Program-made: the position numbers and the translations under genes | Source: Candidatus Binataceae bacterium | GTDB taxonomy: Bacteria; Desulfobacterota; Binatia; Binatales; Binataceae | Reading direction: 5' to 3' | Assembly: GCA_963803045.1 (NCBI GenBank) | Contig: CAWDLC010000015.1 | Span: forward strand, 10,947 to 74,946 | Length of the DNA: 64,000 bases | The notes under the pieces: model-generated | Database searches by the model: none | Told to the model about the DNA's origin: nothing | The model's input: the letters and a program-made list of their open reading frames with translations, nothing else | In this document: one piece after another, positions 12,036 through 34,657 of the stretch | Position numbering within the stretch: position 1 is the stretch's first letter | How the letters are laid out: each line of letters starts with the position of its first letter

Positions 12036-12042
12036 ACAGCTG

Positions 12043-15608: not shown

Positions 15609-15611
15609 CTC

Positions 15612-19350: not shown

Positions 19351-19928
19351 AAATGCTCTAATCCTAGGCGAAGAGGTCGGGTCAGAATCCTGGCGGAGCT
19401 AGCTGAGCTTGCACGTCCGGGGCGTTAATCCGATCACACTCAAATTCGCCGACACCATCTAGGCATCGCGGCAGGCGTCCACTATCTCTCAGATCGGGAT
19501 CACGAAACTTGAAACTATGCTGGCTAGCGAGCCGTCCGCGCGAATATTACGCTGTCACGGCATGAAACAGACTGACGATTCTGAGCGTATTGAACCGCGG
19601 GCGTCATCACTCATTCCTTCTCTGCGATCCGTCGGTTACAGCCTAGGCCTGATAGTCGCTTAGCGCGTGTGTTCCATGATCTGTATGGTGCCGGCGGGAT
19701 TGTCGGTATTGATATGAGCTGCGTAGGTTCTTGCGCCGTGAATGAACAGGTCCGGGACGGGCGCTGCCGGTTTCTCGCGGCGGCGGGCGGAACCCTCTGC
19801 CCTCGGTACGGACACCCGTTGTCATCCATGCGCCGTATAAGAAAGTCTCGAACTTCAGTACGAGGGGAACCGGTGCGAACGGCGCCTTCCGCGCCGTCGG
19901 GAGCCTTTCATGAAAATGATGCTTTCAC

Positions 19929-19950
19929 CAAACGGTCAAACCGTTTGCGC
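19929..19950 (-). terminator. possible intrinsic terminator downstream of trbL
   Basis: Perfect hairpin AAACGGT-CAA-ACCGTTT about 80 nt downstream of the trbL stop, followed by a T-rich stretch on the minus strand. Confidence 0.25.
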
Positions 19951-20029
19951 AGACGCGATGGCCCGTGGCTATGTCCTTCAGGTTTTGTATCAAGCCGGGG
20001 ATCGCGAAGTCCGGGCGAGCTTGTGATCC

Positions 20030-21124
20030 TCACAGAAGACCGGTCTGGGCGGTGGCCCTAGGCTGTTGAGTAGCCGAGCCGCGACCAGCACGGGCCGTTT
20101 GGCTTCCGTTCGGGGTGGGCGAGGAAATGACGTTACCGCTTGCGGGCATCCGTACCGTGGGCCGGGATGAGGCCGAGCCGCCGTGGTTGTTGGCGGTGGC
20201 TCTGTCGCCAGCTTCGAGACTTGCGCCCAGCGAGTGGCTGCCTTGAGTTGAAGAACCGGATTCCGCTCCCACCGACTTCTGGCTCGTGAGAATTCGGCCC
20301 AAACCATAGCCCGCCATCGCGGCTTCGAATGCGTGGCTCAGATTTAGCGAAACGGCACCGCCAACGACCGAGGCGGCGGTGTTCGGAATCGTCCACGTGA
20401 GAAGCATAAAGATAAGAGCGCCGCCCGCAATGGTCAGAGGGAGCGTTGGATCCGCGACCGTCCATCCCGTTAGCGCGGAGTTCCAGCCGGCAATGATCGT
20501 CATGCCCACGCCAACGAGCAGGTATAGGAAAAAAAGCTTGATGCCGACTCCGACGATCCAGCCGAGGAAACCCTCAGCAAACTTGATCGTCCATCGAGAA
20601 CCGCTGAAGCCTAATATCAGTACGCCACCGCCAACGCCGATATACGCCTCGGAAAGTGCGAGCAGCATTTGCCCGGCGATGAGAGCAAACGAAAGGAACA
20701 TGATCAGCCCCGCTACGAGAGCAATCAGCGATGCGATCGTGAGGTGAAACCACCCCAAACTCCCGAAGCCGCGATAGATCGTCTGAAACATCGCGAGGCC
20801 ATCGTTGAACACTGTGCTCGGGCTAAGGTCGGGAATCCCGGCCGCTTGTCCCCCAATCTGCTGAAAGCCTTGGATGATTGCGCTGAACCAGATCGGCGCA
20901 TTCACGATCATTGCGTACAGAAAGCCGAACGCGAGAGATTTCTTTACAAATTCTACCAGCAGGCGTGATGGATCTTCCTGATCGGTGAGGAAATGAACAC
21001 AGGTGATGACAATTTCGATGAGTACCAAGCCGAAGAATATCTTCTCGGCGAAGGGCTGCATGATCGCCATGTAGCGCTGGCCTGCCCACTGAAACGTCTG
21101 ACCGATATTGTCGAGGTTGTTCAT
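20030..21124 (-). CDS. trbL: TrbL/VirB6 conjugative T4SS inner-membrane protein
   Basis: 364 aa polytopic membrane protein with the TrbL-like hydrophobic core and a Ser/Gly/Ala/Thr-rich C-terminal tail. Confidence 0.8.
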   Translation of the reverse strand: MNNLDNIGQTFQWAGQRYMAIMQPFAEKIFFGLVLIEIVITCVHFLTDQEDPSRLLVEFVKKSLAFGFLYAMIVNAPIWFSAIIQGFQQIGGQAAGIPDLSPSTVFNDGLAMFQTIYRGFGSLGWFHLTIASLIALVAGLIMFLSFALIAGQMLLALSEAYIGVGGGVLILGFSGSRWTIKFAEGFLGWIVGVGIKLFFLYLLVGVGMTIIAGWNSALTGWTVADPTLPLTIAGGALIFMLLTWTIPNTAASVVGGAVSLNLSHAFEAAMAGYGLGRILTSQKSVGAESGSSTQGSHSLGASLEAGDRATANNHGGSASSRPTVRMPASGNVISSPTPNGSQTARAGRGSATQQPRATAQTGLL

Positions 21125-21133
21125 CGCAAGTCC

Positions 21134-21475
21134 TCAATGAGTCTCTTGCGCGTTGGGAGAGGGGACCGGCACGAGTCCGCCGCCTAAGCCGTTAGGGGGC
21201 ATAGTCGTCGAGAACGGGACTCGAGGCGCGGCGGCTGCCAGTACCGGCTGACAGTTGATTAAGAACTTGTGATCGGCCTGCTGGCAAAAGCCGAGCGCTT
21301 TTCCCCAAAGCTCCGTTTTTCTCTGAAGTTGTTCGTTCCAGAACTGGTCGCCGTAGTTTTCCGCGGCGTTGGGGGACTGCAGCGCAGCGAGCGGAGCACT
21401 GGTGTCGTCGGATTTGCCATTGCAGGCTCCGAGGAGAAGGGCAACGGTCAGTATGCAAAACTTGAGTCCTTTCAT
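21134..21475 (-). CDS. small lipoprotein, TrbK-like by position (entry exclusion)
   Basis: 113 aa; lipobox LLLGACNG; sits between trbJ and trbL as TrbK does in Ti-type trb operons. Confidence 0.45.
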   Translation of the reverse strand: MKGLKFCILTVALLLGACNGKSDDTSAPLAALQSPNAAENYGDQFWNEQLQRKTELWGKALGFCQQADHKFLINCQPVLAAAAPRVPFSTTMPPNGLGGGLVPVPSPNAQETH

Positions 21476-21486
21476 AGAGCTCCCGT

Positions 21487-22218
21487 CTATTGGGCAGGGG
21501 CGTTGAGACCGTTGTTGGGCATGGTTGATGAGAACGGTATCGTCGGACCCGCGCTAAGCCACTGCTGGGTGCTGGCGTCCTCGGCCGCCTGCCGATTGAC
21601 CGCATTCGCAGCGACGACATTCTGCGCGTTGATCATCGCGACGACCAGCTGCCTCAGCATCTGAATCTGCTGCACCTGCTGCAAGGCGATTTCGTTGCCC
21701 ACCTCGATTGCCTGCAAATTTCCCGCAGCGGTCTTGTTCATACCTTCGAGCTCGCCAAATTGCGCCTGCTCGTTGGCAAAATTTTGCGCTTGCGCCTGGG
21801 CTGCTGCCAGAGTGCCGTTGAGTGTGTTCAACGTGGTGGCGATGTTGCTGGCTTCCTGTTGGTCCGGATTCTGTGGCACAACGTAGCCGGGAAACTGTTG
21901 CTGAAACTGCGATTGCAGGTTGCCGAGCGTGTACGAAAGTCCGCCCTGCTGCTGAATGATCCCGCCCAGTTCCTCGAGCATGGACTGGCTTGATTGCCAC
22001 ACGCCGGCGTATCCACCGGTGGTGTTCCTGATCATGTACTGAAGCTGCTGCGCTTCGGTGAGGACGGATTGAGTCTCTTGCTGAAGCTGCTGGAGTTGCC
22101 GAGCGAACATGCTCGGGTCGAAGACGATCTGCGTTCCTCCGCCGAACTGCGCGCGCACAGACGACGGAGGCGTCAGAAGAAAAGCGATTACGGCCATCAG
22201 CGCTAAGCGTCGTGCCAT
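21487..22218 (-). CDS. trbJ: TrbJ/VirB5-like T4SS protein
   Basis: ATG 22218 after AAGGAGG; signal peptide MARRLALMAVIAFLLTPPSSVRA then Gln-rich coiled-coil typical of TrbJ. Confidence 0.7.
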   Translation of the reverse strand: MARRLALMAVIAFLLTPPSSVRAQFGGGTQIVFDPSMFARQLQQLQQETQSVLTEAQQLQYMIRNTTGGYAGVWQSSQSMLEELGGIIQQQGGLSYTLGNLQSQFQQQFPGYVVPQNPDQQEASNIATTLNTLNGTLAAAQAQAQNFANEQAQFGELEGMNKTAAGNLQAIEVGNEIALQQVQQIQMLRQLVVAMINAQNVVAANAVNRQAAEDASTQQWLSAGPTIPFSSTMPNNGLNAPAQ

Positions 22219-24713
22219 TGCAGTTCCTCCTTGGGGAGCTTTCCATTTCCGTTCACAGTAAGAATTTTGGTGAATGGCGCGCGGTGCCTGGTATCGCGGC
22301 TCTCCCAGTATTCTGCCCAATCGTCCAATCCTCGGATGCGAAGCCACTCGCTCGCCCACCGATCTCCATGTTTAACGATCAGTTGATGTGCCTGGAGGAT
22401 GTCCGGCTTCGATCCCGAACCGATAAAAGCCAACGTGGCCTCTCCGAGCGCCAGATCGAAGAGGCGCCGCCCGGCGGGCGAGAGGTAGTAGTACTGGCGC
22501 TTCGGAACCGCAAGCGAGAGCATCTCGATCTGCCTGCTCGTCAGGCCGAACTTGCGATAAAGTTCGGCAGTGACGGGATTCTGCGCCTCGGGATTGGGTA
22601 GGAGAATCTTGGTTGGACACGACTCGAGAATCACATCGCGTTGCGGCGAGTTGGCGACTTCAACCAGACTTTGGGTGGAAAGCACGACGGCGGCGTTCTT
22701 CTTGCGCAGCGTTCGCAACCAGTCTTCGATCTTCGCACCAAACGCACCGTTGGCGAGCATCACCCATGCTTCATCGAGCACGATGAGGGTCGGTCTCCCG
22801 TCCAGGCGCTGATCGATCCGGTGAAAGAGATATGTGATTACGGGTAGGAGGACCTTCTCGCCCATCGCCATCAGCGCCTCGATCTCGAAAGTCTGAAAGC
22901 GGCTGCTGCCAAGTACGTCATTGTCGGCGTCGAGGAAACGGCCCATCGGACCGTGAAGCGAATAGAAGTCGAGGCCGTCGCGGAGCGTCTGATCCTGAAG
23001 CAAGCGAACCAGATCGGTAATGGTTCGGGCATCCGGCCTGCTGTCCCCCAAGAGCTGCAGGGCACGCCAGATGGCTTTCCGATGCTGTGGAAGAAGCGTC
23101 ACGCCTTGCAGGTTGAGCAGAGTTTCGAGCCAGTCCTGCGCCCACATCCGCTCGTTGTCGTCGTTTACATTCGCGAGCGGGCAGAAAGAGATTTCGCTTT
23201 CCCCGAGATCGTAGTGATCGCCGCCCGCGGCCTTGGTCAGCACAAATGCCGACAGGCCTTTGTCGAAGCAAAAGACTTGCGCGTCCGGATAGCGGAAGAA
23301 CTGCGCGATTAGCAGGCCGAGCAGCGTTGATTTGCCGGAGCCAGTCGGACCAAAGATCAGGGTGTGGCCGACGTCGCCAACATGCAGGTTGAGTCGAAAA
23401 GGCGTTCCGCCAGTCGTCGCGGCGTAGCAAAGCGGCGGACTGTTTTCCGGGTAGAAGGGACAGGGGTTGACCTCCTCCCCTGGCCACACATTGGTAGTCG
23501 GCATGAGGTCGGCGAGATTCCGCGTATGGATGAGCGGGCGCCGGACGTTCCGATAGCCGTGGCCGGGAAGGGAGCCAAGATACGCCTCATTGGCGTTGAC
23601 GTGCTCGATGACAGCGGGAAAGCCATGGTGTTGCAGTTGCTTTGCGATCTCTCTCGCGTTGGACTCGGCTGCCAAACGATTCTCGTCCATCAAGATGATG
23701 GTGCTCGTGTAGTAACCAAAGCGGACCCGGTTCGAGCTCGCCTCGGCAAGTGCGTCGTCGGCGTCCTCGGCCATCGCCAGCGCATCTTTGTTCTCAAAGC
23801 TCTGAGACGCGCCGTTGCTGAACACCTGTTTGATCATACCGGACAGTCCATGGCGCTTCTGGAACCAGTTGCGGCGCTGGATGCGAAGAGCCCGTTCAGC
23901 CTCAGCCGGGTCAAGGAAGATGAAGCGTGTCGACCATCGGTACGCAATCGCAAGCTCATCCAGGAATGCGGTGACCTCGGGCCACGAGTGAAACGGAAGG
24001 CCGGTCAGGCCAATCAGGCGAATGTGAAGGTCATCCAGCATGGGCTGGAAGCCCGCATGGAATTCATGATTGCCGAGCAGAACGTCGAGAAAGTTCCCCT
24101 GGGCAGGCGGCGTGACGGGATCGGGGCGCGCGGTGATGCAGGAGTTGAGGTGCGACAGGAGCGCAACGTCGTCCATGCGCTGCATCAGGAGTCTGGCGCT
24201 CAGAGCATCTTCATTTTCCGTGAGGCTGCGCCTGAAGAGGTCGAGCGTCTCCTCCCAATCGGTTACCCTTCGGCCTTGGAAGAACAGGCTCGCGGCTCGC
24301 GACTGCATCTCGGTGGGTGGCGTCCACGTGAAGGTCAACGCGAAGCGACTCTCGAAGTGCTGACCTTCCTCCGTGTAGTGAAGCCGGCGCTCGTGATCTA
24401 TGAGCGCAGTGACGGGGTCCGGGAAAGCTCCGGCCTCCGGATAGCCGATGCTCGGTTTGCGGATGAGATCGACGTTCATCATCCAGCCGTCGCCCAACCG
24501 CGCGAGACCAGCATTGACCTGATGAACGAGAGCCGTCATTTCCTCGGGACTTGCGGAATTCAGGTCAGGGCCGCTGTAGCGCCAGCCGGCCAAGAGCGAG
24601 CCGTCTTTCAGCAGAACGATGCCGGGGTCTATCAGCGCCGCGTAGTTGAGGAGGTCCGGAAAACCTCCAAGTCGATCTGACCGGCGCCGAAGGTTTCTGA
24701 ATTCTCTGAACAC
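22203..24713 (-). CDS. trbE: TrbE/VirB4 T4SS ATPase
   Basis: 836 aa; Walker A FGPTGSGKSTLL; VirB4-family architecture. Confidence 0.9.
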   Translation of the reverse strand: MFREFRNLRRRSDRLGGFPDLLNYAALIDPGIVLLKDGSLLAGWRYSGPDLNSASPEEMTALVHQVNAGLARLGDGWMMNVDLIRKPSIGYPEAGAFPDPVTALIDHERRLHYTEEGQHFESRFALTFTWTPPTEMQSRAASLFFQGRRVTDWEETLDLFRRSLTENEDALSARLLMQRMDDVALLSHLNSCITARPDPVTPPAQGNFLDVLLGNHEFHAGFQPMLDDLHIRLIGLTGLPFHSWPEVTAFLDELAIAYRWSTRFIFLDPAEAERALRIQRRNWFQKRHGLSGMIKQVFSNGASQSFENKDALAMAEDADDALAEASSNRVRFGYYTSTIILMDENRLAAESNAREIAKQLQHHGFPAVIEHVNANEAYLGSLPGHGYRNVRRPLIHTRNLADLMPTTNVWPGEEVNPCPFYPENSPPLCYAATTGGTPFRLNLHVGDVGHTLIFGPTGSGKSTLLGLLIAQFFRYPDAQVFCFDKGLSAFVLTKAAGGDHYDLGESEISFCPLANVNDDNERMWAQDWLETLLNLQGVTLLPQHRKAIWRALQLLGDSRPDARTITDLVRLLQDQTLRDGLDFYSLHGPMGRFLDADNDVLGSSRFQTFEIEALMAMGEKVLLPVITYLFHRIDQRLDGRPTLIVLDEAWVMLANGAFGAKIEDWLRTLRKKNAAVVLSTQSLVEVANSPQRDVILESCPTKILLPNPEAQNPVTAELYRKFGLTSRQIEMLSLAVPKRQYYYLSPAGRRLFDLALGEATLAFIGSGSKPDILQAHQLIVKHGDRWASEWLRIRGLDDWAEYWESRDTRHRAPFTKILTVNGNGKLPKEELQWHDA

Positions 24714-24725
24714 TGTTGCTGTCTC

Positions 24726-25064
24726 CTAGTACTTCCGAAGCCTCGGCACTGCCGGATGAACCGGCGCTGGTGGAGCGGTGATCCCGGCGCGTGGCGGATA
24801 GTACCGCTGGTAATGCAAGTGCCGGATGTAAACCTCGCTCAGTTGCGCATCGAACTTGGCTGCCTGTCGAAGCGCCCAGTGACCCGCGGTGCCCAGGATC
24901 GTCGCGATCGCAACCGTGTATAGATGTAGGCCGACGCCGAAAATCAGCGCTGCGACTATCAGCCAGTTCAGGATTGCGAGCCGCCGCTCGGCGCCGCCAA
25001 GCAAGACCGGCCGCGTGAGCGCCTGATGGATCAGCGTTCGTTGAACCTCGGTGTCCATCGCCAC
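24726..25064 (-). CDS. trbD: TrbD/VirB3-like
   Basis: 112-aa small membrane protein immediately upstream of trbE. Confidence 0.7.
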   Translation of the reverse strand: MAMDTEVQRTLIHQALTRPVLLGGAERRLAILNWLIVAALIFGVGLHLYTVAIATILGTAGHWALRQAAKFDAQLSEVYIRHLHYQRYYPPRAGITAPPAPVHPAVPRLRKY

Positions 25065-25083
25065 ATCCGATCCGGTCGCCTGC

Positions 25084-25434
25084 CTAGAAGAGCGCGGGCG
25101 CGAATGGAAACAGCGCCGTCATCAACTGAGTTGCTCCGAGCGCCGCCGCCCCTCCAAGGGCAACGGCGGACATTTTCCGCGCGCCAGTGCCGTGCTCGCT
25201 AAAGGTCCAGGTAAGCCCACAGCCGATGACGGCTATTGTTGTCGCGGCGTGGGCGACGGTGCCCTGCAGGTCTCCCTGAATCGTGGCGAGCGGTGCATCC
25301 CACGGCAGAGTACCGACTCCCGTGGTTGCGAGCGCTTGCGCAGGCCACAGAATCGTTACAACGGCGAGCGCGTAGCTCAGTTTGCTGAGCGACCGGTCGG
25401 TACAGGAATAAATCCTACTGATGATCGACTTCAT
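25084..25434 (-). CDS. trbC: TrbC/VirB2 pilin
   Basis: 116 aa; signal peptide plus hydrophobic Gly/Ala-rich pilin core (…AVALGGAAALGATQLMTALFPF). Confidence 0.7.
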   Translation of the reverse strand: MKSIISRIYSCTDRSLSKLSYALAVVTILWPAQALATTGVGTLPWDAPLATIQGDLQGTVAHAATTIAVIGCGLTWTFSEHGTGARKMSAVALGGAAALGATQLMTALFPFAPALF

Positions 25435-26402
25435 GACGGCCTCCTATCGAACTGATTTTGAAACCAAAGGCGGGATCGTAGCCTTCAACGCGAACCATCT
25501 CTGTCACGCGCCGCCCTTTGGGCGTTCGCTTGACAAAGGCCAAAACATTGACGGTCTGTGAGATTAGATCCGGCTGGGGCGGTACTCCCGCCTCTTGAAC
25601 GAGACTGCCCAGTCGAGTGAGCGCGGTGGCTGCACTATTGGCGTGCACTGTAGTCACGCCGCCGGGATGACCGGTGTTCCAGGCCTTGAGCAGCGCCAAG
25701 CGCTTCTCCGCCGCGAACTTCACCGATGATTATGCGGTCGGGACGCGCTCGCATTGTGGTGCGTGTAAGGAAGGTGAGGTCTGCGGCGACGGTCGTATGA
25801 AGCTGCATCACGTTCGGCGCGTCGCAATGTAGTTCGAGAGTGTCCTCGATGATGATGAAGCGCTCGTTTGGATTTCCGAGCCGAACCATCTCGTGAAGCA
25901 GGGCGTTCGCCAGCGTCGTCTTGCCCGACCCCGTCCCGCCGGCGAGCACGATGTTCTCGCGTCTGGCGACGGCGCCTCGAAACTCTTCTGCCTGGTTGGC
26001 GTCGATGATGCCGTGGGTGAGATAGTCGTCGAGCGTATAGATGAGTCGAGCGTGTTTTCGGATGACAAACGACGGAGAGCTGACGACGGGTGGCAACCAG
26101 CCGGTGAAGCGGCTTCCGTCCAATGGCAGTTCACATTCGATGACCGGACGTTGATCGTTCGCGACGGTGTTGAGGGCGAACGCCACGGTTCCGATCAGCC
26201 GCTCCGCCTGAACGGCGTGCATTTTTGTTCCTGCGGGCCGCATTCCTCCGCCGTGAGATTCGAGCCAGAGGGTACCGTCTGGATTGAGGATGATCTCGAT
26301 CACGTCCGGGTCGTCGAGAGCCGCCAGCACGGCGGAGCCAAGCTCGCGCCTGAGCCGCTCATCCAGCCGCGTGGATTGAATCGCTGCCAACCCCATCGCC
26401 AT
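25415..26402 (-). CDS. trbB: TrbB/VirB11 secretion ATPase, apparent 1-nt frameshift near 25714
   Basis: Walker A LAGGTGSGKTTLANAL; …RIIIGEVRGGEAL in one frame, the continuation ALLKAWNTGHPGGVTTVHANS… (ORF 25415-25723) in another; junction at gaagcgcttGgcgctg. Confidence 0.85.
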
Positions 26403-26874
26403 TCTCCTGTTGGTCGTGTCGCCGGTCGGCGGACTCCTCGGTCTGTTGTGCAGTCGGAGAATCGGTCTCGGTCAGTTCCATTACCGCGTGACGCCAGTTG
26501 TTGTAGAGGCGGGTTCCGGCCGTCAGCGCGCTTTCGCGCAGTTCGGCGGGAATCTCGGGCAGGTGTACCAACGAAACGAACGCGAGCCGGTCGAGCATCG
26601 CGAATAAGACATGCAACTCGTGGTAAAGCGAATTGAGCCGCTTACTCTGCGCTTCGATGCTGCTCCCGAGTCGCTGCTCCATCTCGATCAGCACGAAGTC
26701 GCTGGGTGCTCGGGTGCCGTTGTCGATAAGATGCTCGTAGTCGAGCAGGCACTGCCGGAGGTAACGAGACAGCGAGATTTTGTTTGCAGAAGCCGCCTCT
26801 CTGAAATGAGCGGCTTCCTCGATACTCAAATAGCAGGAGACTTCTCGCGCATTGTTTCTCACTTGAATAGCCAC
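26359..26874 (-). CDS. ribbon-helix-helix (CopG-like) regulator between traG and trbB
   Basis: 171 aa; N-terminal RHH-like segment YLSIEEAAHFREAASANKISLSRYLRQCL; same position as CopG-family regulators in Tn4371/ICEMlSym-type modules. Confidence 0.5.
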   Translation of the reverse strand: MAIQVRNNAREVSCYLSIEEAAHFREAASANKISLSRYLRQCLLDYEHLIDNGTRAPSDFVLIEMEQRLGSSIEAQSKRLNSLYHELHVLFAMLDRLAFVSLVHLPEIPAELRESALTAGTRLYNNWRHAVMELTETDSPTAQQTEESADRRHDQQENGDGVGSDSIHAAG

Positions 26875-28766
26875 TCCTTGCCCGAGTCCCTCAGAGCCTG
26901 CTCGCGCTCCGGCTCCGCGGTTGAATGTCGGTCGTTCGCTTCTTCGGTGAATCGATTCTTATGATTGGCGCCCGAGACCGGCGTCTCCGGCCATTCGCGA
27001 ACGGCTCCGATTCGATCCGAGTGTCGGGGCGGATCGAGCTTGGCGCGGGCCGAAAATTCCTGGTCGAGGTAGTAGCGAATCTTGGTTCCGTAGATCGGTG
27101 GACTTCCTGGAGCGAAGATCAGCGCCGCATCCTCGGGCAATCGCATCGTCTCGTCTGGCGTGATCAATGGGCGCTGTATCGAGGGTTCTGACACGGTGGT
27201 CCGACTGTCCGAGTAAGTGCGGTGCTCGTGGCGCACCGTTGCCGCGCCTGCCATCTCGGATATCAGCCGCGCGGTTTCAATCTTGTTAGGCGCGTATGCG
27301 ACACGAACCGCGCAGTTCGAGACGATCGATTCGTCGTGGCCGTAAGCGGCGTAGAGCTGGCTCAGGTCCTGGGCGATCAAGTAAGCCTTGATTCCGTAGC
27401 CTGCCGCGTAAGAGAGCGAGCTCTGGAAGAAGTCGAGGCGTCCGAGCGCGGGAAATTCGTCCAGCATCAGCAATAGGCGACACATCGGCACCGCGTGTTC
27501 ATTCGAAGGCGAAGTCTCGGTGAGCCGTGCGCCGATCTGCGCGAGCAGGAGGCGCATCAATGGCCGAGTGCGCGTCAGGTCCGATGGCGGCACGGTGAGA
27601 TAGAGGCTCACCGGCCGATCGTGGTGGGTCAGATCGGCGATGGAAAAGTCCGACGCGGCCGTATTCGCGGCAATGATTGGATCTCGATACAGAGTGAGGC
27701 AGCGAGTCGCTGTGCTGAGGACAGAAGTGCGTTCATTGGGGCTCTTGCTGAGCACCGCTTGCGCCGCTCCGGCAACCACGGCGTGCGTGATCTTTTGGGC
27801 GTGCGAGGCGTCGATCATGGCCTGGACTGCCTTCTCCTGATCGCGATCTGGCGGGTTCAGGAATTTCAGACATCCAGCGAGTGTCTTGTCGGCCTCGGCA
27901 TGGATCACGTGAAGGATCACGCCGGTGAGGAGATCGTGCGCGGTCAGGTCCCAATGATCGCGGGGGGCGTTACCGGCCGGATCGATCAGCATGTCCGCGA
28001 TGTTCTGCGCGTCCTTGACCTCCTCGGGGCCAAGTCGGATTTCAGCGAGCGGGTTGTACCGTGCTGCTGTGGTGTCAGTGCATGTCGGATCGAACCGCAG
28101 GCAGAGGTTGCCAAGGCCTTTCTGTCGCCAGCCCGCGGTGAGCTTCCAGTTTTCGCCTTTGATGTCGTGGACCACGACACTGTGGGGCCAACTGAGCAGG
28201 GTTGGGACTACCAGTCCCACGCCCTTGCCGGTGCGCGTCGGCGCAAAGGCGAACACGTGCGATGGCCCCGCATCCCGGAGATAGTAAGTCTTCCTTCCAT
28301 TTCGCCATGCGCCGACATAGACGCCACTGTCTGGGTCGAGCAGCCCGGTGGCGCTGATCTCCTTCCTGCCGGCCCAGTGAGCTGAACCGTGTAGATCGTC
28401 GGTTCTCGCTCCGACGGACCGGGTGAAATGAACGGCGATCATCGCCACGACTGTGACGATCAAGGTTGGGTATTCGAAAATGCGCATTCCTGCGCTTAGC
28501 ATCGGCTTTGCGGCGGCGACGTGTTGCCATTCCCATGCCCAAATCAGAATGCTCCACGGCCGGTAAAAGGGTCCGACAAAGGGCAGAGTCGCCAGAGGTG
28601 CGCCCAACACTGCGGAATGTCTGAGCAGCGCGGCGATGTGCTGGGTTGCAATCGCGAGCGAGAACGCAGCGGTAAAAGCGACTGCCGCTGTCGCGGCGAG
28701 GCGTACGTCCCGCTCTGCTACGGTGTGGGAAACTGGCATCCTGTACGGTAGCAACTGATTAGCCAT
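26859..28766 (-). CDS. traG: TraG/VirD4 type IV coupling protein
   Basis: 635 aa; N-terminal TM segments; Walker A …APTRTGKGVGLVVPTLL…; TAATG overlap with the relaxase stop. Confidence 0.9.
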   Translation of the reverse strand: MANQLLPYRMPVSHTVAERDVRLAATAAVAFTAAFSLAIATQHIAALLRHSAVLGAPLATLPFVGPFYRPWSILIWAWEWQHVAAAKPMLSAGMRIFEYPTLIVTVVAMIAVHFTRSVGARTDDLHGSAHWAGRKEISATGLLDPDSGVYVGAWRNGRKTYYLRDAGPSHVFAFAPTRTGKGVGLVVPTLLSWPHSVVVHDIKGENWKLTAGWRQKGLGNLCLRFDPTCTDTTAARYNPLAEIRLGPEEVKDAQNIADMLIDPAGNAPRDHWDLTAHDLLTGVILHVIHAEADKTLAGCLKFLNPPDRDQEKAVQAMIDASHAQKITHAVVAGAAQAVLSKSPNERTSVLSTATRCLTLYRDPIIAANTAASDFSIADLTHHDRPVSLYLTVPPSDLTRTRPLMRLLLAQIGARLTETSPSNEHAVPMCRLLLMLDEFPALGRLDFFQSSLSYAAGYGIKAYLIAQDLSQLYAAYGHDESIVSNCAVRVAYAPNKIETARLISEMAGAATVRHEHRTYSDSRTTVSEPSIQRPLITPDETMRLPEDAALIFAPGSPPIYGTKIRYYLDQEFSARAKLDPPRHSDRIGAVREWPETPVSGANHKNRFTEEANDRHSTAEPEREQALRDSGKEWLFK

Positions 28767-29840
28767 TAGCGTGTTCGTCCCTTCTCTCGCTCGGCAACCT
28801 GAACATAGATGACCTTGCGCCCGTTCTTCTCGAACTCCGCGCCGCTAAGGGTCACGACCGCGCCCACTTTAAGCCGCTGCTCGCCGCGCGCCTTTTCGAT
28901 CGCCGGGGTTTGGCGGATGTAATGGAGCTTGCCGTCATTGCCTTCGATCAGGAGATACCGCCGGTCGATCGTCTCGTTCTCGAGGCCGGTGCCGATCACC
29001 CGGCCGGTCACCTGCTCGCCCGGTTTCAGTTCCGTAACGCGAAGCGGCGCCTGCCGGTCCTGAATCTGATCGAGGTGGCGCGCCCTCGTCTTGATGATGT
29101 CGATCGAGAGCTGGTGCTGACGGAGCATGTGTTCGAGGTCGGGCGATATCTGCCAGGAAAGTTGATCCATGCGCCGCGCAAGTCCCACGCTTTCAAGGAA
29201 GCCGAGCCTCGCGACGTTTTGCGCCTGACGTTCGCGCGCGGCTTCGTTGCGGTGCTGCACGTCATTGAACGTGACGATGTTCCGCGAGTTCGCCTGCCGG
29301 AGCAGGGCACGATCTATTTCCGTGAATTGGTCACGCGTGACGGCTTGCCCTCTCGATTCCAGAATGTCGCGCTCTACCCTGAGACCCAGCTCGCGGCTCG
29401 CGATCTCCTGGCTCCTGTCCCGGATCCCGGACTGGATGTATCGGCGGTCAATCGAAAGCGCCTTGCCCGATTCGGTGACGCCACGAATCAGAATGTGGAC
29501 GTGCGGGTTGTCGGTGTTGTGATGATCGATCGCCGCCCACTTGAGGCGCGTTCCTGAGATCGCGTTCCATCTGGGCGACCAGCTCCCGCGCATGATCTTT
29601 GAGATCCATTTCAGCGCCGTTCTCAGGCGAAACGATGATCCGAAACAGCCGAGGGTCGCCCGACTTCTGCCAGCCGGCCAGAAGCTTGGAGAGGCTGATG
29701 TCTTCGCGGATCGCGTCGAAGCCCAATCCCTTTGCGTCGTCACGCTGCGCGCCTTCCCGCGCGAGATAGCGTCCGTGCGCGGCCCACGATGCCGACCTCG
29801 TATTGCGCGAGTACGAAACCTTGACGACGCTCCGTTGCAT
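28766..29840 (-). CDS. MOBP-type relaxase (TraI/VirD2-like), apparent 1-nt frameshift near 29570; start uncertain (29840 or 30029)
   Basis: N-terminal part (…MQRSVVKVSYSRNTRSASWAAHGRYLAREGAQRD…RLFRIIVSPENGAE…ELVAQMERDL) is in the ORF 29448-30029 frame. Continuation GTRLKWAAIDHHNTDNPHVHILIRG (3-His motif) is in the ORF 28766-29743 frame. Confidence 0.75.
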
Positions 29841-30021
29841 GGAAGCGCGAGGCTCTCGCGATACGCCGGCGCCTTGTCGTCCGAGACGCGTGTTCATACG
29901 GCTGGGCTGCCCTGCCCGTCCATGCTGCTTCGCCGCCGCGAGCCACCATCGCCTCGCGCGATGCTGTTCTCCGCGCCGGCGCGGAGGACGCGGCTGCATC
30001 TCAAGGTCGCGGCGCAGCAGG

Positions 30022-30411
30022 TCACTCATCTAATGTTTCTCCGCCCAAAAGCCGCAGCATCATTCGCGGAAGTTCAGCGGAATTGCCTGGCTCGTCGCCG
30101 TTCAGCGCGCCGATGATGCGCCGGATGTGTTCGCTCGAAAGCGTTAAACTGTGCAGCTCCTTGGATCGGCTCCACGACTTCCAAGCACGCTTCGAAGTCG
30201 CGCGGGCGTCGAGCTTTGCTCGCCCTGCCAAGGCGATCGCCGTGCGGCGTGTGGCGGGAAGGTCCGACAGACGCGCGGCAAGTTCAAGTAATCCACCGAG
30301 CAGCAGGTCGGGCGGCTCGCGGTCCAGCCCCGCAATCGCAACCAGCCCGCCGAGATTCGCCAGGTGATGGACTCTAAGTCCCTGCTCTCTGGTGTGCAGT
30401 TCGTCCGCCAT
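30022..30411 (-). CDS. hypothetical protein between traF and relaxase (possible relaxosome accessory)
   Basis: 129 aa, ATG overlaps region after the corrected traF stop; no recognisable domain. Confidence 0.3.
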   Translation of the reverse strand: MADELHTREQGLRVHHLANLGGLVAIAGLDREPPDLLLGGLLELAARLSDLPATRRTAIALAGRAKLDARATSKRAWKSWSRSKELHSLTLSSEHIRRIIGALNGDEPGNSAELPRMMLRLLGGETLDE

Positions 30412-30414
30412 AAC

Positions 30415-31024
30415 TCACCACGTGAGAACCGGCTCCAGCGCCGCTCGAACTGAGCTCGCCTGGCACCGGCCCGAAGTAACGAGAGTCCCAACTTCGCGCG
30501 TCTTTGGTTCCGAACAGCCAAACCTCTCCGGGGTGCACCGTGTAGCGGCCCCACGCAACGTGGTCTAGCGATCCCCCGCGGCTGTCGCGCGAAAGCGTGG
30601 CCGAATGTTCCAAACGTTGGCCGTTGACTGCGATGTAATCGCGCATGATTTCAACCGAGTCTCCGGGCAGCGCACTGAGTCGTTTGCCGACCGGCTCGAT
30701 GCCGTCGCCGCAACCGCGTCCGCGCAAGAGATAGCCGCGCGAGCGCCCGAGCTGTGCGATCGCATCTGGCAGACACGCCAGCACCAAGTCGCCGCGCGAC
30801 GGTGCGCGGTTAACCATCCGGTAGATCCCTGGCGGACACGCGCTATCCGTGAGTCCGATCTTCAAACCCAGAAGCTGGAAGCCCAAGACTGGTATTGCGA
30901 TTCCCGCGCAGAGGACGACCGGAAACAGTGATCGTCGTGCAATTGTTCGGGTACGGGGCAAGGCGATGCGGTACGGGGAAGAAAATCCGCGCCGGATCTG
31001 GGGAATATGCTCAAAAGCGCGCAC
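30415..31024 (-). CDS. traF: TraF conjugative signal peptidase (S26 family), apparent 1-nt frameshift near 30458
   Basis: …PGEVWLFGTKDARSWDSRYFGPVP; canonical C-terminus ASSVRAALEPVLTW* appears in the +1 frame (stop 30415-30417), while the listed frame runs on into GELSSSGAGAG…. Confidence 0.75.
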
Positions 31025-31049
31025 GGTACGGTAAAACCTTTATCTTGCC

Positions 31050-31325
31050 CTACGAACGCATCGCCCCCGCTGCCCCGTTCCTCTCCTCCCTCTGCACCAA
31101 TCGCTCCGCGCCCCCTTCCCGTTTGCTCCGCCACCCTCGGAAATCTCGGTCGCTCTCAACGAAATGCTTCAGCATCTCGATCGCCACTTCCTTGGCGTCC
31201 GTCTCCCGATGCAAGCTGTCGCGCAAATACCCGACGTATTCGTCCAGCGAGGCCTTGAGGCTGCCCGGCAATGTCAGCCGCAACTGTACGGGAGGTAAAT
31301 CCTTGTCCTTGAGTCTGAGTTTCAT
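31050..31325 (-). CDS. DUF2274-like small protein (normally terminal gene of Ti/ICE-type trb operons)
   Basis: 91 aa, MKLRLKDKDLPPVQLRLTLPGSLKASLDEYVGYL… resembles DUF2274; located right after trbI. Confidence 0.55.
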   Translation of the reverse strand: MKLRLKDKDLPPVQLRLTLPGSLKASLDEYVGYLRDSLHRETDAKEVAIEMLKHFVESDRDFRGWRSKREGGAERLVQREERNGAAGAMRS

Positions 31326-31350
31326 CTCTCCAGCTCCTTTCTCCGTTTCT

Positions 31351-32529
31351 TCAATTCCTGTACGGCCCCGGCAGTACGAGGTCGTTCGTCACCATCACGT
31401 TGAACTGGTAACCCGGCCGTATCTCCAAGGTGGGCGGGATGTTCATTCCGCGCTGCAGGCTGCTCTGCGCGACTTGCCCAAGTTGCTGACTCGCCGCCGC
31501 ACCGCCCATCTCACTGAGCAAAGACATTTGGTTCGGCGGCGCGTAGCCGTACCCGTAGGGCCCGGAGAATCCGGTGCCTCCGCCGAACGCTCCCATCTGT
31601 CCAACCATCTGGCCGGCGCTGATCACGGAAAGGAGCGCCGCGGTGCCGAACGTCTTCAGGTAGTGGTTGTTCACCTGATCGCTGAATCCGGCGTAGCCCG
31701 CCTGGTCGGCGCCCGGCATCTCCGGTATCTCCATGCTCGACGCGTTCGGGAAGATCAGCCGCTTCCATTCGATCTGCGCGCGCTGCTGTCCATACGCCGC
31801 GTTCGTCTGGTACGAGCCGATGAGCTTCGAGCCTTGCGGGATCAGAACCCATCGTCCGGTTGCGGTATCGAAGACGTTCTCGCGAACCTGCGCGAGAACC
31901 GGTCCCGGCAGTTCCGAATTGATGCCGCTGATCAGAACCGCCGGAATCACGCTGCCTGCTGTGATCAGAAAAGGAGACACTGGCGGTTTGAGGCTCGCGA
32001 TCGCGTTGGCGCCGTTGCTCTGGCCAGATGGCGTGACCGTAAGCTCGTAGGGCCTGGTTGCCCCTGCTTGACTCGCGATGCTTGGAACTTCCAGCGTATC
32101 GCCGTGGTGAAACGCTTGGACCATCGGGGGCGCGGAGAGCGCCTTTACATATTCCTCCTCCTGCAACGCGGCCAGCCTGCTGGGTGGACGCGCTGGGAGG
32201 GGAACAGCAGGAGCCTGCGTCGCGGTAGCGGGCAACGCAGGAGGAAGTGGAACAGAATTGATCTCAGCAGGCTTCGGCCTCCTGGCCTTCGCTTCCAGTT
32301 CCGCGATGGCTGCACGTTCCTCGTTGGATGTGACGGCGGCTGCATCGTCGCTGCGGGCCCTCGGGCTCGAATCCGGAGAGTCCGAATGCAGCGCGACGAT
32401 CATCACAAGCAGTGCTGCCGCGATTACCACGCCAGCGACAATAACCAGAGTGCGTGTCAGCCGTGGGCCGCCCCCGCGCGATTGGTGAACGCGCGGGCCG
32501 GTCGGTCCAATTGCCGCTGCCGTGGCCAT
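31351..32529 (-). CDS. trbI: TrbI/VirB10
   Basis: 392 aa; N-terminal TM, Pro-rich linker (PLPPALPATATQAPAVPLPARPP), conserved VirB10 C-terminal beta domain (…RLIFPNASSMEIP…). Confidence 0.85.
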   Translation of the reverse strand: MATAAAIGPTGPRVHQSRGGGPRLTRTLVIVAGVVIAAALLVMIVALHSDSPDSSPRARSDDAAAVTSNEERAAIAELEAKARRPKPAEINSVPLPPALPATATQAPAVPLPARPPSRLAALQEEEYVKALSAPPMVQAFHHGDTLEVPSIASQAGATRPYELTVTPSGQSNGANAIASLKPPVSPFLITAGSVIPAVLISGINSELPGPVLAQVRENVFDTATGRWVLIPQGSKLIGSYQTNAAYGQQRAQIEWKRLIFPNASSMEIPEMPGADQAGYAGFSDQVNNHYLKTFGTAALLSVISAGQMVGQMGAFGGGTGFSGPYGYGYAPPNQMSLLSEMGGAAASQQLGQVAQSSLQRGMNIPPTLEIRPGYQFNVMVTNDLVLPGPYRN

Positions 32530-32532
32530 GAT

Positions 32533-33471
32533 TCACCTCGCCGTGCCCGTGTACCGGATGCTCACGCGGTCCTGCTCACGGCCGACGCCCGAAACCAGCA
32601 CCGCTTGGTCGAAGAGTTTGTCGACCACGTAGTAATCGCCCCTTACGCGATAGTTCACCATCTCGCTGCCGTCGCCTGCGGCGACCAACAACGCGGGAGC
32701 TTCGCTCGACTTTGTAGTCGCGGGCATCTGGATGTAGATGTGCGTACCGTCATCGAATGCTCGGACCGGTTTCCACGGCACCTTTGGTCCAGACACCGTG
32801 TACGAAAAATTGAGAGCGCCCGGATCGAGCGAAGCCAGAGAAGCGACCACGCCGTCCGGCTGTGATTGCGCATCGCGCGCCTTGGCGGCTGTGTGGTCGG
32901 CGTCCTGCATCGCCTGCTGGAGTTCCTCAGGATAATAAAAGGCGACTTCCTGCATTTCGCGTCCGGCGCGCGAGCGCAGCATTAGGTGGTAAATGTGCTT
33001 CGTCGTGTAGATCGTGAGATTGGTGCTGATACCGGCAGCGGTGGGTTTTATCGCAAGGTGCGGAGTCGGATTGCGCGGATCGCCCGATGAGGCGGGCGTC
33101 ACGAGCCAGCGTTCGCTGTCGCCGCTGGCAACGTCCGTAATTGTCTCGCCCGGCTCAAGCTGGATGTCGGTGGTTCGCAATGGAGCGCAGTCAACTGCAG
33201 GCTCTTGTCCTTCTTCATACGGGTAAAGCTCGCGGTGCGGCGTCTTATAAACCTGCCACGCGCCGTCTTGCTGATGTTGTTTGACCGCCTCCCGAACCTC
33301 TTGGGGCTGCTGCGCAAGTATCTGAGCGCCCGTTAGCGGTGCGGGCTCCGGCTCGGGAGATGGTGCTGCTTTCGTGACCAGCGTCAGCGGCGGCGGTGGC
33401 GTTTGCTTCGCCGAGCAAGCGGCGAGCGTCAGCGAGAGAGCGACGAACCCAAATGTGCCAATGCCCTTCAT
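32533..33471 (-). CDS. trbG: TrbG/VirB9
   Basis: 312 aa; lipoprotein signal (LTLAACSAK), VirB9-like C-terminal domain. Confidence 0.8.
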   Translation of the reverse strand: MKGIGTFGFVALSLTLAACSAKQTPPPPLTLVTKAAPSPEPEPAPLTGAQILAQQPQEVREAVKQHQQDGAWQVYKTPHRELYPYEEGQEPAVDCAPLRTTDIQLEPGETITDVASGDSERWLVTPASSGDPRNPTPHLAIKPTAAGISTNLTIYTTKHIYHLMLRSRAGREMQEVAFYYPEELQQAMQDADHTAAKARDAQSQPDGVVASLASLDPGALNFSYTVSGPKVPWKPVRAFDDGTHIYIQMPATTKSSEAPALLVAAGDGSEMVNYRVRGDYYVVDKLFDQAVLVSGVGREQDRVSIRYTGTAR

Positions 33472-33483
33472 CGTGATCCCCTC

Positions 33484-34149
33484 CTAACTTCGCTGCTCGG
33501 TCCAATTGAGCTGCGTGACGTAAAATCCGAGCGGGTTCTCCAGGATCGAGGCGTCGGAGGTCGCCGAAATGATCGTAGTGTCGAGCGCCGCTTCCCAATG
33601 CGTCGTGGCGATCGGAGAACCGTCGAGGCCTGATTCTTCCTCGGTCCATCTCACCTGCCACGTCGCTTTCGACAGCGGCAGGATCGAATCGATTTGGACG
33701 CTCACAGATTGGTGCTGAGCGACCTTGAACGGATCATGCTCAAGGTCGTTCTCGTGGTAGTAGTTCTCGAGAAACTTGTAAGCCGGTCCGCGAGCGCGGC
33801 TGTACACCTGCCCGATCAGCTGGTGCTCGGCTGCCGGATCGGTGATCACCTCGCGAGCGTTGCGGATGAAGGCCGCCAGCTCGTATCGCACCATCCGGTC
33901 TGTGCTGATCCGAGTCGTGTTTTCGGTGAGCGCGCTCGGCGCGCCGAGCGCGTATCCGAGCTTGTCGACTTCCACGACATATGGAATGAACTTGCTTCGA
34001 GTGCTGACCCAGACCATTCCGAAAGCCAGCACAAGCGTGATGACCATCATGCCGGCGGCGGTGATCTGCCAGTTGCGTTTGCCGAGAACCAGATCAGCGT
34101 AACGCTCGTCCCATTCCTGCCGCGCTTTGAGATAGACGCTGCCTTCCAT
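33484..34149 (-). CDS. trbF: TrbF/VirB8
   Basis: 221 aa; bitopic with N-terminal TM (MMVITLVLAFGMVWV), VirB8-like periplasmic domain; first gene of the codirectional block. Confidence 0.8.
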   Translation of the reverse strand: MEGSVYLKARQEWDERYADLVLGKRNWQITAAGMMVITLVLAFGMVWVSTRSKFIPYVVEVDKLGYALGAPSALTENTTRISTDRMVRYELAAFIRNAREVITDPAAEHQLIGQVYSRARGPAYKFLENYYHENDLEHDPFKVAQHQSVSVQIDSILPLSKATWQVRWTEEESGLDGSPIATTHWEAALDTTIISATSDASILENPLGFYVTQLNWTEQRS

Positions 34150-34287
34150 GCCGACGCCTCGCTGCCAACGATCGAGCGCGAGTTGTGAATTTCGCGCCCT
34201 CTGGGTTCAGCACTTGAGCAGATTCTGTGCCACTTGCTCGGAACACGAGTGCCCGCCTATCGTCGATCCCGTCTTCTTAAACCGGAG

Positions 34288-34657
34288 GAGGCGCCGTATG
34301 GAAAAGGTGAATGTCGCGGAGAAGTTCGATCTTTTCAGCGACTACTGGAGTCCCAAGATCGCCGCAGAGTTGAACGACTCGTACATCAAACTGACGAAAT
34401 TGAAAGGTGAGTTCGTTTGGCATCACCACGAAAATGAGGACGAGCTCTTTTTCATTATGAAGGGTCGGCTACTTATAAAGCTGCGCGACGGCGAGGTTCG
34501 AGTCGGCCCCGGAGAATTCGTGGTCATCCCTCGTGGTGTCGATCACCTGCCAGTAGCCGAGGACGAAGTTCACGCCATTTTGATCGAACCGAAGACGACG
34601 CTGAACACTGGCAATGTGCGCGGCGAGAAAACGATTGCGAGGTTAGAACGCATTTAG
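34288..34657 (+). CDS. cupin domain protein
   Basis: MEKVNVAEKFDLFSDYWSPKIAAELNDSYIKLTKLKGEFVWHHHENEDELFFIMKG…; cupin motifs (HHHENEDE / G.FVVIPRGVDH). Confidence 0.6.

Follow-up and report, generated by a model that had tools for sequence, protein, structure and literature searches.

Known P-type systems and the transfer module of the window

The closest known systems are the Mesorhizobium ICEs ICEMlSymR7A and ICEMcSym1271 together with the Tn4371-type ICEs (PMC5882170, PMC8627217). Their canonical gene order reads rdfS-traF-msi107-rlxS-traG-msi031-trbBCDEJLFGI-msi021 (PMC5882170, Table 2; for the canonical order elsewhere see also PMC8627217), and the position of rdfS upstream of traF has been described as conserved throughout Proteobacteria (PMC11963761). 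Trb proteins homologous to those discussed below are also encoded in the Tra2 region of IncP (RP4), a plasmid which, unlike the module studied here, keeps Tra1 and Tra2 as separate regions. The Tra2 order is trbB-C-D-E-F-G-H-I-J-K-L, the Ti-plasmid trb operon is arranged as traI-trbBCDEJKLFGHI, and even these two P-type systems place the trbF-I block differently with respect to trbJ-L.

The DNA analysed here, in the following called the window, is a stretch of 64,000 nucleotides from a Candidatus Binataceae bacterium. According to our main reading, to which we assign a probability of roughly 0.85, it carries the transfer module of an ICE in tRNA-Leu(UAG), typical of its clade and with an inherited permuted gene order, and this particular copy has most likely decayed. 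The module (20030-34149, minus strand; Pfam and NCBIfam) runs trbF-trbG-trbI-DUF2274-traF-TraD-like-relaxase-traG-NikA-like-trbB-C-D-E-J-K-L. The first-pass annotation had named these genes, their order and their common orientation correctly, with coordinates agreeing within a few bases, and its assignment to the P-type (MPF_T) transfer modules holds as well; the adjective "complete", however, is true of gene content only, since three insertions break the frames of the relaxase, trbB and the 3' end of traF.

The module opens with trbF (VirB8; 33484..34149; PF04335, E 2.5e-46; 221 aa, as in the relatives), trbG (VirB9/CagX; 32533..33471; PF03524, E 4.7e-54) and trbI (VirB10; 31351..32529; PF03743, E 2.9e-60), homologues of which, with 79-92% identity, are common in metagenomes. 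The DUF2274 gene (31050..31325; PF10038), counterpart of msi021, lies 25 bp upstream of traF (S26 pilin-processing peptidase; 30374..31024; PF10502, TIGR02771). The msi107 position is taken by a TraD-like small protein (30022..30411; PF06412), which is kept in all relatives, and is followed by the RlxS-type MOBP relaxase (Relaxase and DUF3363; 28766..30029; Pfam, NCBIfam), a pseudogene in the window, by the type IV coupling protein gene traG (26859..28766; PF02534, E 3.3e-105) and by a NikA-like ribbon-helix-helix protein (26359..26874; PF21983, E 3.6e-5), whose msi031 position is kept in relatives. Another pseudogene, trbB (VirB11-type ATPase; 25415..26402), has its T2SSE domain spread over two frames. 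The pilin gene trbC (25084..25434; PF04956), trbD (VirB3; 24726..25064; PF05101) and the VirB4 ATPase gene trbE (22203..24713; PF03135, PF19044) precede the VirB5-like trbJ (21487..22359), which matches TIGR02780 with E 7.6e-28, below the curated cut-off of NCBIfam, and probably starts downstream of 22359. The ORF in the trbK position (21134..21475), kept in relatives, has no family match in Pfam or NCBIfam; it bears the lipoprotein signal MKGLKFCILTVALLLGAC with the lipobox LLGAC and is a putative entry exclusion protein. The last gene is trbL (VirB6; 20030..21124; PF04610; TIGR02783 above cut-off). All 16 genes are codirectional and closely spaced, and they most likely make up a single long operon reaching from the element end to trbL.

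With the Mesorhizobium ICEs the module has in common its codirectional genes and a backbone of traF, a small pre-relaxase gene, an RlxS-type MOBP1 relaxase with DUF3363, traG, a small ribbon-helix-helix gene, trbBCDEJ(K)LFGI and DUF2274; the relaxase N-terminus matches the RlxS model (NCBIfam), and in both cases the integration target is a tRNA gene. The differences are nevertheless considerable: the trbFGI-DUF2274 block stands at the 5' end in the window and at the 3' end in Mesorhizobium ICEs, rdfS is absent from its place upstream of traF, where the Mesorhizobium ICEs have a putative transglycosylase (msi107) the window encodes a TraD-like protein, the relaxase of the clade measures about 418 aa against the 654 positions of the RlxS model, TraG identity between the window and canonical-order loci does not exceed 50%, and the host belongs to Binatia and not to Proteobacteria. 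The Ti-plasmid trb operon resembles the module in its P-type Trb proteins (the TIGR models TrbJ_Ti, TraF_Ti and TrbL_P match the window), in trbJ-K-L following trbE and in the presence of a TraD-like accessory protein, whereas the window has no trbF-G-I after trbL, neither trbH nor a quorum-sensing traI, and a MOBP/RlxS-type relaxase in place of the MOBQ-type TraA. In RP4 the F-I block lies between trbE and trbJ; in the window it is ahead of the relaxosome genes and traG.

Element end, putative promoter region and cargo

On its right side the integrated element ends at an attR core (36125..36176, plus strand), which comprises the 3' 52 nt (nt 30-81) of tRNA-Leu(UAG) and is 100% identical to positions 16866-16917 of the contig L164, inside an intact tRNA-Leu(UAG); ARAGORN finds no whole tRNA at this place in the window. 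L164 and L165 are related Candidatus Binatus contigs with an empty site, in which the element is absent and the tRNA gene intact. The module is part of an element that sits in tRNA-Leu(UAG) on the chromosome of a Candidatus Binatus; as to the host, the NadE protein is 91% identical to that of Candidatus Binatus sp. Adjacent to the core lies a conserved end segment (36000..36124, minus strand) with two copies of the invariant direct repeat AAGTGGGCACT, probably an attP arm. L167, a relative with 51% TrbI identity, occupies the same chromosomal site with the same end segment and the same tRNA fragment (53 nt) upstream of trbF. Homologous segments (L082, L083, L085/L086, L167) are without exception found upstream of trbF at the outer boundary and adjoin tRNA fragments, as does that of L166; it counts against the model, though, that in L082 and L085/86 the neighbour is the 5' half of tRNA-Ser(UGA) and not a 3' tRNA fragment.

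The distance from the attachment end to trbF is about 2 kb in the window and about 290 bp in L167. This variable region holds a gluconolactonase-like (SGL) gene (34806..35660, minus strand; PF08450), at whose position relatives have toxin-antitoxin genes or nothing, and a cupin-domain gene (34148..34657, plus strand; PF07883, residues 87-144), which probably starts downstream of 34240; the first ~90 nt of its ORF overlap the conserved trbF promoter region. There, a sigma-54-type -24/-12 box, TGGCAC-N5-CTGCT (GG-N10-GC; 34216..34232, minus strand), is found 68-83 nt ahead of the trbF start codon (ATG). The box is conserved in seven loci (at -78 to -85 in L082, L083, L084, L085/86, L161 and L167), while the 64-kb window contains two matches against 0.48 expected; it may be the promoter of trbF and would then stand in place of the FseA-dependent rdfS promoter of Mesorhizobium. 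No enhancer-binding protein was identified for it. The trbF leader further contains a conserved inverted repeat (34174..34199, minus strand), GAGCACG-N12-CGTGCTC in relatives and GGGCGCG-N12-CGCGCTC in the window, where both arms show A>G and T>C substitutions. Given the succession of tRNA fragment, end segment and promoter box upstream of trbF, the element starts with trbF, and in the clade as a whole the element end is located directly ahead of this gene.

At the other side of the module, trbL is followed by a conserved non-coding region (19844..20029, minus strand; 84-94% identical in about ten loci) with the hairpins AAACGGT-TTG-ACCGTTT and CGGCGC-GGAAG-GCGCCG; in L095, L108 and L137, inserted DNA of 1.7-2.1 kb interrupts this region. 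Past trbL sits the variable cargo of the clade, often anti-phage defence genes. A frequent first cargo gene encodes a Fic-domain protein (17568..19214, minus strand; PF02661), with homologues of 44-48% after trbL in 11 of 33 loci, and the type I CRISPR-Cas locus next to it (7617..17515, plus strand; Cas6, Cas5, Cas3, Cas1, Cas2, Cas4 and an array of 13 37-nt repeats at 16586-17515) is probably cargo, too; L138 carries the same cas genes downstream of trbL in opposite orientation. A serine recombinase gene lies at 6869-7543, and a DUF72 gene near this resolvase is broken by several lesions, the only other broken gene seen. Neither the window nor the 10 kb next to trbL at any locus yielded an attL, an integrase or a recombination directionality factor; the only tyrosine integrase, in L083, is located outside the end segment, and no complete element was recovered. 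The idea of a linearised circle proposed at first is right in that the element is integrated and was once circular, but its junction is not inside the trb operon at 20030/34149: the end is about 2 kb upstream of trbF, and cargo extends beyond trbL.

Frame breaks and the proposed oriT

Alignment with relatives revealed three one-base insertions, all private to the window. One, near 29556, splits the Tyr motif of the relaxase from the HxDxxxPHxH motif, leaving in two frames what is an intact ORF of 418-419 aa in more than 20 relatives; another, near 25699, disrupts trbB, intact with 320-328 aa in more than 20 relatives; the last, near 30461, replaces the final ~14 residues of TraF (alignment with nine relatives). 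Together with the lack of an integrase or attL within 36 kb, they indicate a copy which is most likely decaying and no longer self-transmissible. Ten flanking chromosomal genes are single-frame, and the copy is therefore probably decayed, although, with about 10 kb of flanking genes verified as intact, this contrast is only suggestive (P about 0.1). The insertions could also be sequencing or assembly errors in an intact and functional module, a reading that we consider possible though not likely: single-base insertions are a typical error of some long-read assemblies, and long-read contigs of the relatives L081 and L083 show scattered frameshifts of their own, but none of the three lies in a long homopolymer, the cas genes are as free of frame breaks as the flanking genes, the broken DUF72 gene lies near the resolvase and has several lesions, and degraded copies occur elsewhere in the clade, as in L160, with a transposase fragment and without traG.

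It is very improbable that 29841-30021, initially placed upstream of the relaxase and named as an oriT candidate, serves as oriT. In ICEMlSymR7A oriT does lie upstream of rlxS (PMC11963761), and an inverted repeat is present at 29845-29860, with arms of 6 bp instead of the 7 bp first given (29861 is an A). However, the relaxase starts at 30029, overlapping the TraD-like stop, and not near 29840, so that the segment is coding (residues 3-63); in every relative the frame stays open from MSDLL... onward, and the RlxS model is matched from residue 22. Indels among relatives preserve the frame, being single three-base gaps or, in L084, a 10-nt gap that an insertion of 1 nt compensates. The repeat itself is short, one of 12 such inverted repeats counted over 331 bp of coding DNA rich in GC, and is not kept in L083, L084, L085, L126 and L161.

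Gene order among relatives and its origin

All relatives are metagenomic contigs, some labelled "Xanthobacteraceae", "Pseudomonadota" or "Deltaproteobacteria", which may reflect binning or a real host range. Eleven of them (TrbI 51-88%), L081-L086, L160, L161, L166 and L167 included, have the same trbF-G-I-traF-TraD-relaxase order, the stretch from traF to trbL is in the same order in about 30 loci, DUF2274 adjoins traF in nine relatives, and in none of the 33 contigs with at least 70% TrbL identity does trbF follow trbL. In contrast, all 79 genome loci with TraG identity of at most 50% show the canonical traG-trbB..E-J-L-F-G-I. As had been suspected, cyclic permutation of the canonical order does give the one observed, yet the rearrangement suggested for it is not one of this genome, given that every related contig examined has it; synteny instead points to an ancestral arrangement of a distinct family.

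We give practically no credence to a recent translocation or inversion that brought trbFGI-DUF2274 ahead of traF in this genome alone. The departure from the 79 canonical loci and the serine recombinase gene, with other signs of decay nearby, would suit it, but identical order and junctions recur in more than 40 independent contigs (TrbI 51-92%, TrbL 70-96%), even intergenic distances are kept (DUF2274-traF 25-29 bp in several loci), and the related loci refute it. At the level of the clade, a small plasmid-like circle with little beyond a canonical transfer module may have integrated through an opening between trbL and trbF. The exact cyclic permutation, the attachment end immediately upstream of trbF (about 290 bp in L167) and the mere 25 bp between DUF2274 and traF speak for this origin, as does a second order (trbD-E-J-K-L-F-G-I-traF-trbB-trbC-DUF2274-x-T4CP) in the more distant group L140-142/L150, which shows that block reshuffling recurs. 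We nonetheless regard it as unlikely: no PLSDB plasmid has a TraG above 50% identity, block transposition, or recombination between tandem copies followed by deletion, would yield the same result, and canonical ICE circles hold cargo and integrase between msi021 and rdfS, so that re-opening alone cannot turn one layout into the other.

The circle originally envisaged was closed from the transfer module alone and takes no account of what else the element contains. Set against canonical ICE circles, a single block has moved, either trbFGI-DUF2274 or, equivalently, cargo and integration part; relative to the Mesorhizobium/Tn4371 layout, the block has swapped places with the rest of the element. 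Judged by synteny, the permuted order is the inherited and fixed arrangement of a separate ICE clade in soil Binatia bacteria, in which an RlxS-type MOBP relaxase is paired with the mating apparatus of P-type (MPF_T) systems. If the small-circle origin were true, a linearised circle would be the right description after all, at the level of the origin of this clade.

Gene content and gene order of the conjugation module

Sixteen co-directional genes lie on the minus strand of the window between 34149 and 20030, and ORF listing together with profile searches bore out the order and strand given in the first-pass annotation. The first four genes are trbF (VirB8), trbG (CagX), trbI and a DUF2274 gene; these are followed by traF (S26 peptidase), a small TraD-like protein (PF06412) and the relaxase (Relaxase + DUF3363), then by traG (coupling protein) and a NikA-like ribbon-helix-helix protein, and finally by trbB, trbC, trbD, trbE, trbJ, a small lipoprotein at the trbK position and trbL. 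The features that define an MPF_T (P-type Trb/VirB) system are largely found here: a VirB4-family ATPase (TrbE, 836 aa in a single frame, PF03135 + PF19044), the core channel and pilus proteins, and a TraG/VirD4 type IV coupling protein (PF02534, E 3.3e-105); the VirB11-type ATPase TrbB is the exception, its homologue being split over two frames. TrbC, D, L, F, G and I, the counterparts of VirB2/3/6/8/9/10, all match Pfam families; TrbL also matches TIGR02783 over its cut-off, and TrbJ, the VirB5 counterpart, matches TIGR02780 with E 7.6e-28, under the curated cut-off. The relaxase matches PF03432 and PF11843 (DUF3363), and scores 52.8 bits (E 2.7e-14) with the RlxS model NF041267, whose cut-off is 850; relaxases of the clade are about 418 aa long as compared to the 654 positions of this model, and the copy in the window is frameshifted. 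Four related contigs (L081-L084) carry a second, diverged DUF2274-like ORF (38-48% identical) in an extra stretch of ~255 bp between trbI and DUF2274, which is missing from the window (compare 31340-31351) and from L085.

The initial reading had seen in this order a circular permutation of the canonical one, arising either by rearrangement or from a linearised circular element. A TraG scan with one genome per species did not reach the clade: all 79 loci recovered at 50% identity or less show the canonical order traG-trbB-(C)-D-E-J-L-F-G-I, and the only closer match is a 5-kb fragment (L001, 69% identity). Among PLSDB plasmids, neither the module (by megablast) nor TraG (by tblastn) matched anything above ~50% protein identity. 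TrbI homologues at 79-92% identity are plentiful in metagenomes, some of them labelled Candidatus Binataceae, and we inspected the contigs encoding eleven TrbI homologues (L081-L086, L160, L161, L166, L167; TrbI 51-88% identical to that of the window). Every one has the order VirB8-CagX-TrbI-(DUF2274)-S26-TraD-relaxase and, where long enough and not degraded, continues with TraG-NikA-TrbB-TrbC-VirB3-TrbE. Another 73 loci came from a TrbL scan of metagenomes, and the window proteins were mapped onto them: about 30 of them show traF-TraD-relaxase-traG-nikA-trbBCDEJKL, nine have DUF2274 immediately ahead of traF, and trbF is absent after trbL in every one of the 33 loci that have a TrbL identity of 70% or higher and extend for 1 kb or more beyond the gene, non-trb DNA following there as in the window. 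Since related contigs and TrbL loci have the same layout, the permuted order is a clade character and normal for this lineage. A rearrangement is thereby refuted through the very observation that had been proposed as decisive against it, namely related genomes sharing the order. The clade, which is associated with the little-studied Binatia, occurs widely in metagenomes from peat and soil.

The backbone of ICEMlSymR7A and Tn4371 comprises rdfS-traF-msi107-rlxS and traG-msi031-trbBCDEJLFGI-msi021 (PMC5882170 Table 2; PMC8627217). By homology or position, all of these genes except rdfS are present in the window, with the TraD-like protein at the msi107 position. In those elements trbL adjoins trbF and msi021 stands at the 3' end, whereas here trbFGI-DUF2274 is placed ahead of traF. 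When whole circles are compared, a single exchange of blocks separates the layouts: trbFGI-DUF2274 and the cargo-plus-integration part have swapped places, which is more than a change of opening point. The proposal of a linearised circle holds in a general sense only: the element is an integrated ICE whose end adjoins trbF, but opening a canonical circle elsewhere does not yield its layout. A more distant soil-metagenome group (L140-L142 and L150, TrbL ~52%) shows another P-type permutation, HTH-trbD-E-J-K-L-F-G-I-traF-trbB-trbC-DUF2274-x-T4CP (TrwB-type), so reshuffling of blocks is recurrent within this part of the P-type family. The position of the F-I block also differs between RP4 and Ti. 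As known P-type systems already vary in this respect, the permuted layout is a third P-type arrangement; it belongs to an under-studied phylum and sets these elements apart from a known ICE type in gene order and, putatively, in regulation. Our literature search found no description of a trbFGI-DUF2274-traF order and nothing relevant on conjugation in Binatota.

Integration site, element end and oriT candidates

NadE in the window is 91% identical to that of Candidatus Binatus sp., and two related genomes (L164 and L165) share the synteny to the right of the module: modABC, msrA, FAA hydrolase, nadE, PqqD, a transglutaminase-like gene and an ABC transporter. Both are without trb genes at this site and carry an intact tRNA-Leu(UAG) after the ABC transporter and a 229-aa ORF. 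Window positions 36125-36176 are 100% identical to the 3' 52 nt of this tRNA, and the 3' end of the fragment points to the ABC transporter, its native downstream flank. The fragment is a classical attR; the element fills the DNA below 36125 and ends at 36124/36125. Another contig (L167, TrbI 51%) has the same chromosomal site, the same 53-nt tRNA fragment and a homologue of the conserved end segment (36000-36124, minus strand), with trbF beginning ~290 bp beyond it. Homologous end segments in L082, L083 and L085/86 are likewise abutted by tRNA fragments, L166 has an analogous architecture, and a twofold AAGTGGGCACT repeat is invariant among the end segments.

The opposite end was sought in several ways. 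No second att copy, whole tRNA-Leu or tRNA-Ser core was found within the window, whose scanned ORFs include no tyrosine or large serine integrase, the only recombinase gene being that of a 224-aa resolvase (6869-7543). A tyrosine integrase occurs in L083 alone, just beyond the end segment; it has no homologue in any locus searched, and tRNA and integrase searches covering 10 kb past trbL in 28 loci gave nothing relevant. The element may extend past the window. An Rfam search of 16000-37000 returned no matches.

Some further observations concern the surroundings of this site. At L082 5617-5660, L085 7040-7080 and L086 1-20 the element end abuts the 5' half of a tRNA-Ser(UGA) in sense orientation, GGAGGGGTGGCCGAG(T/C)GGTTGAAGGCACCGGTCTTGAAA, without a 3' tRNA fragment and without a whole tRNA being called there. 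A core of GGCACCGG(T/A) is common to tRNA-Ser (sense) and tRNA-Leu (antisense), and this shared core may explain dual targeting. When window 36179-36236 is set against the empty site of L164 (15937-16865), ~660 bp, comprising most of the 229-aa ORF, are gone, as are ~220 bp between this ORF and the tRNA, both representing small deletions beside attR. On the chromosomal side of attR lies a lasso-peptide-like cluster (36232-39702; ABC exporter, transglutaminase-like B2, PqqD-like B1 and a 260-aa ORF without family match), which is kept in related Binatus contigs.

Because the oriT of ICEMlSymR7A lies upstream of rlxS (PMC11963761), it was reasonable to expect one ahead of the relaxase gene, and 29841-30021 had been put forward as an intergenic candidate. 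The segment is, however, coding, since the relaxase ORF starts at 30029, overlapping the stop of the TraD-like gene, and residues 1-157 of its product can be aligned both with intact relatives and with the RlxS model; indels among relatives in this region keep the reading frame. The inverted repeat at 29845-29860 does exist, but its arms are 6 bp long, a stretch of 331 bp contains twelve short repeats including this one, and relatives do not share the hairpin. The end segment was considered as another oriT, as it holds an IncP-like nick core, GATCCTG|T, and a DnaA-box-like TGTGGATAA. Both motifs are altered in L085 and L167, and this interpretation was rejected as the main one; an attP arm fits the end segment better, since the two motifs vary while the AAGTGGGCACT repeat does not.

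State of the window copy and its cargo

The module had been called complete, and all of its genes are indeed present, but in two of them, relaxase and trbB, the coding sequence is divided between two frames. More than 20 relatives encode the relaxase in one uninterrupted ORF of ~418 aa, and TrbB (~320 aa) is intact in all relatives compared. One extra base each is found in the window near 29556 (relaxase) and 25699 (trbB), and another near 30461 alters the last ~14 residues of TraF; all three insertions are missing from every relative aligned. The break in the relaxase parts the catalytic Tyr motif from the HxDxxxPHxH motif. Programmed frameshifting, as known for fseA in R7A, was discarded for both genes, the insertions being private to the window. 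Regarding sequencing error, a GC3-based frameshift scan across the window was not discriminating and was replaced by tblastn against syntenic relatives. In the comparison with L162/L164, none of ten flanking chromosomal genes has a broken frame. The domains of the cas genes are covered in full. Degraded copies also occur elsewhere in the clade (for example, L160). Decay was judged more likely than sequencing error, with weak statistics, and the window copy is probably dead. Apart from these, one broken gene was seen, a DUF72 gene (5467-6240) with at least two frameshifts and no clean N-terminus; it adjoins the serine resolvase gene (6869-7543) and a step in GC content from 0.63 to 0.56 near 8000, an area where an island may have its boundary or an inversion may end.

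Downstream of trbL, relatives carry variable cargo, including TIR, SNF2, BrxC/D-like and DUF4007 genes, and Fic homologues follow trbL in 11 of the 33 loci. The window carries a Fic gene and a complete-looking type I CRISPR-Cas locus (7617-17515; Cas6, Cas5, Cas3, Cas1, Cas2, Cas4 and 13 repeats of GCTTCAAACCGATCCCCGATGAGGAGGGGACTGAAAT), which is placed between the Fic gene and the resolvase and apparently lies inside the element as cargo. The same cas genes are found downstream of trbL, in reversed orientation, in one other locus (L138). The 12 spacers of the window array gave no convincing match in the window or in any fetched locus, the only non-self match being an 18-nt stretch of spacer 10 in L071. 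Between 19215 and 19360, immediately ahead of the Fic-domain gene (17568-19214), TTTCGAC(C) recurs in six or seven iteron-like copies at a spacing of ~20-25 bp; these could be operator sites or a replication-origin-like array. The non-coding stretch downstream of trbL (19844-20029) is 84-94% conserved in about ten loci and contains two perfect short hairpins; an insertion of 1.7-2.1 kb splits its counterpart in L095, L108 and L137 at window position 19955/19956. Elsewhere in the window, a TIR-domain protein (48940-50205) and unannotated ORFs stand beside tRNA-Arg(CCT) (51916-51992); synteny with L164 is rearranged over 48940-51992, which may be a second small island.

A putative sigma-54-dependent operon and its meaning

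The ~95 bp preceding trbF show higher conservation than coding DNA does, the distant L085 included. They contain TGGCA-N6-(C/T)TGCTC with the GG-N10-GC spacing of a sigma-54 -24/-12 pattern, a box found at -78 to -85 in seven independent loci; the whole window has two matches to the pattern, with 0.48 expected. An inverted repeat follows the box, and both of its arms have changed together in the window. Because neighbouring genes of the module overlap or lie 0-25 bp apart, one long operon would run from the element end to trbL under putative sigma-54 control. In ICEMlSymR7A the traF operon begins with rdfS, which precedes oriT and rlxS, and the rdfS-traF linkage is conserved throughout Proteobacteria (PMC11963761). 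Here, by contrast, DUF2274 ends 25 bp upstream of traF, and no small wHTH ORF was found at the traF-upstream position in the window or in the relatives examined.

Taken together, these data can tentatively be read as a Binatia ICE clade in which a 16-gene operon of ~14 kb, comprising the mating, coupling and relaxosome genes, would be transcribed from the attachment-site end by a sigma-54 promoter, in which the link between excision and transfer through rdfS-traF, near-universal elsewhere, would have been lost, and whose circular ancestor would have been re-opened between trbL and trbF, leaving a cargo hotspot after trbL; we give this joint reading about one chance in four. If true, re-opening between trbL and trbF makes the position downstream of trbL a hotspot for defence systems, whole CRISPR-Cas loci included. 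The clade departs from the canonical order and from the rdfS-traF linkage, yet keeps the same gene set, and it offers a natural test of which backbone linkages are functionally required, while suggesting another regulatory input (sigma-54) as well as a hotspot of defence-gene cargo after trbL.
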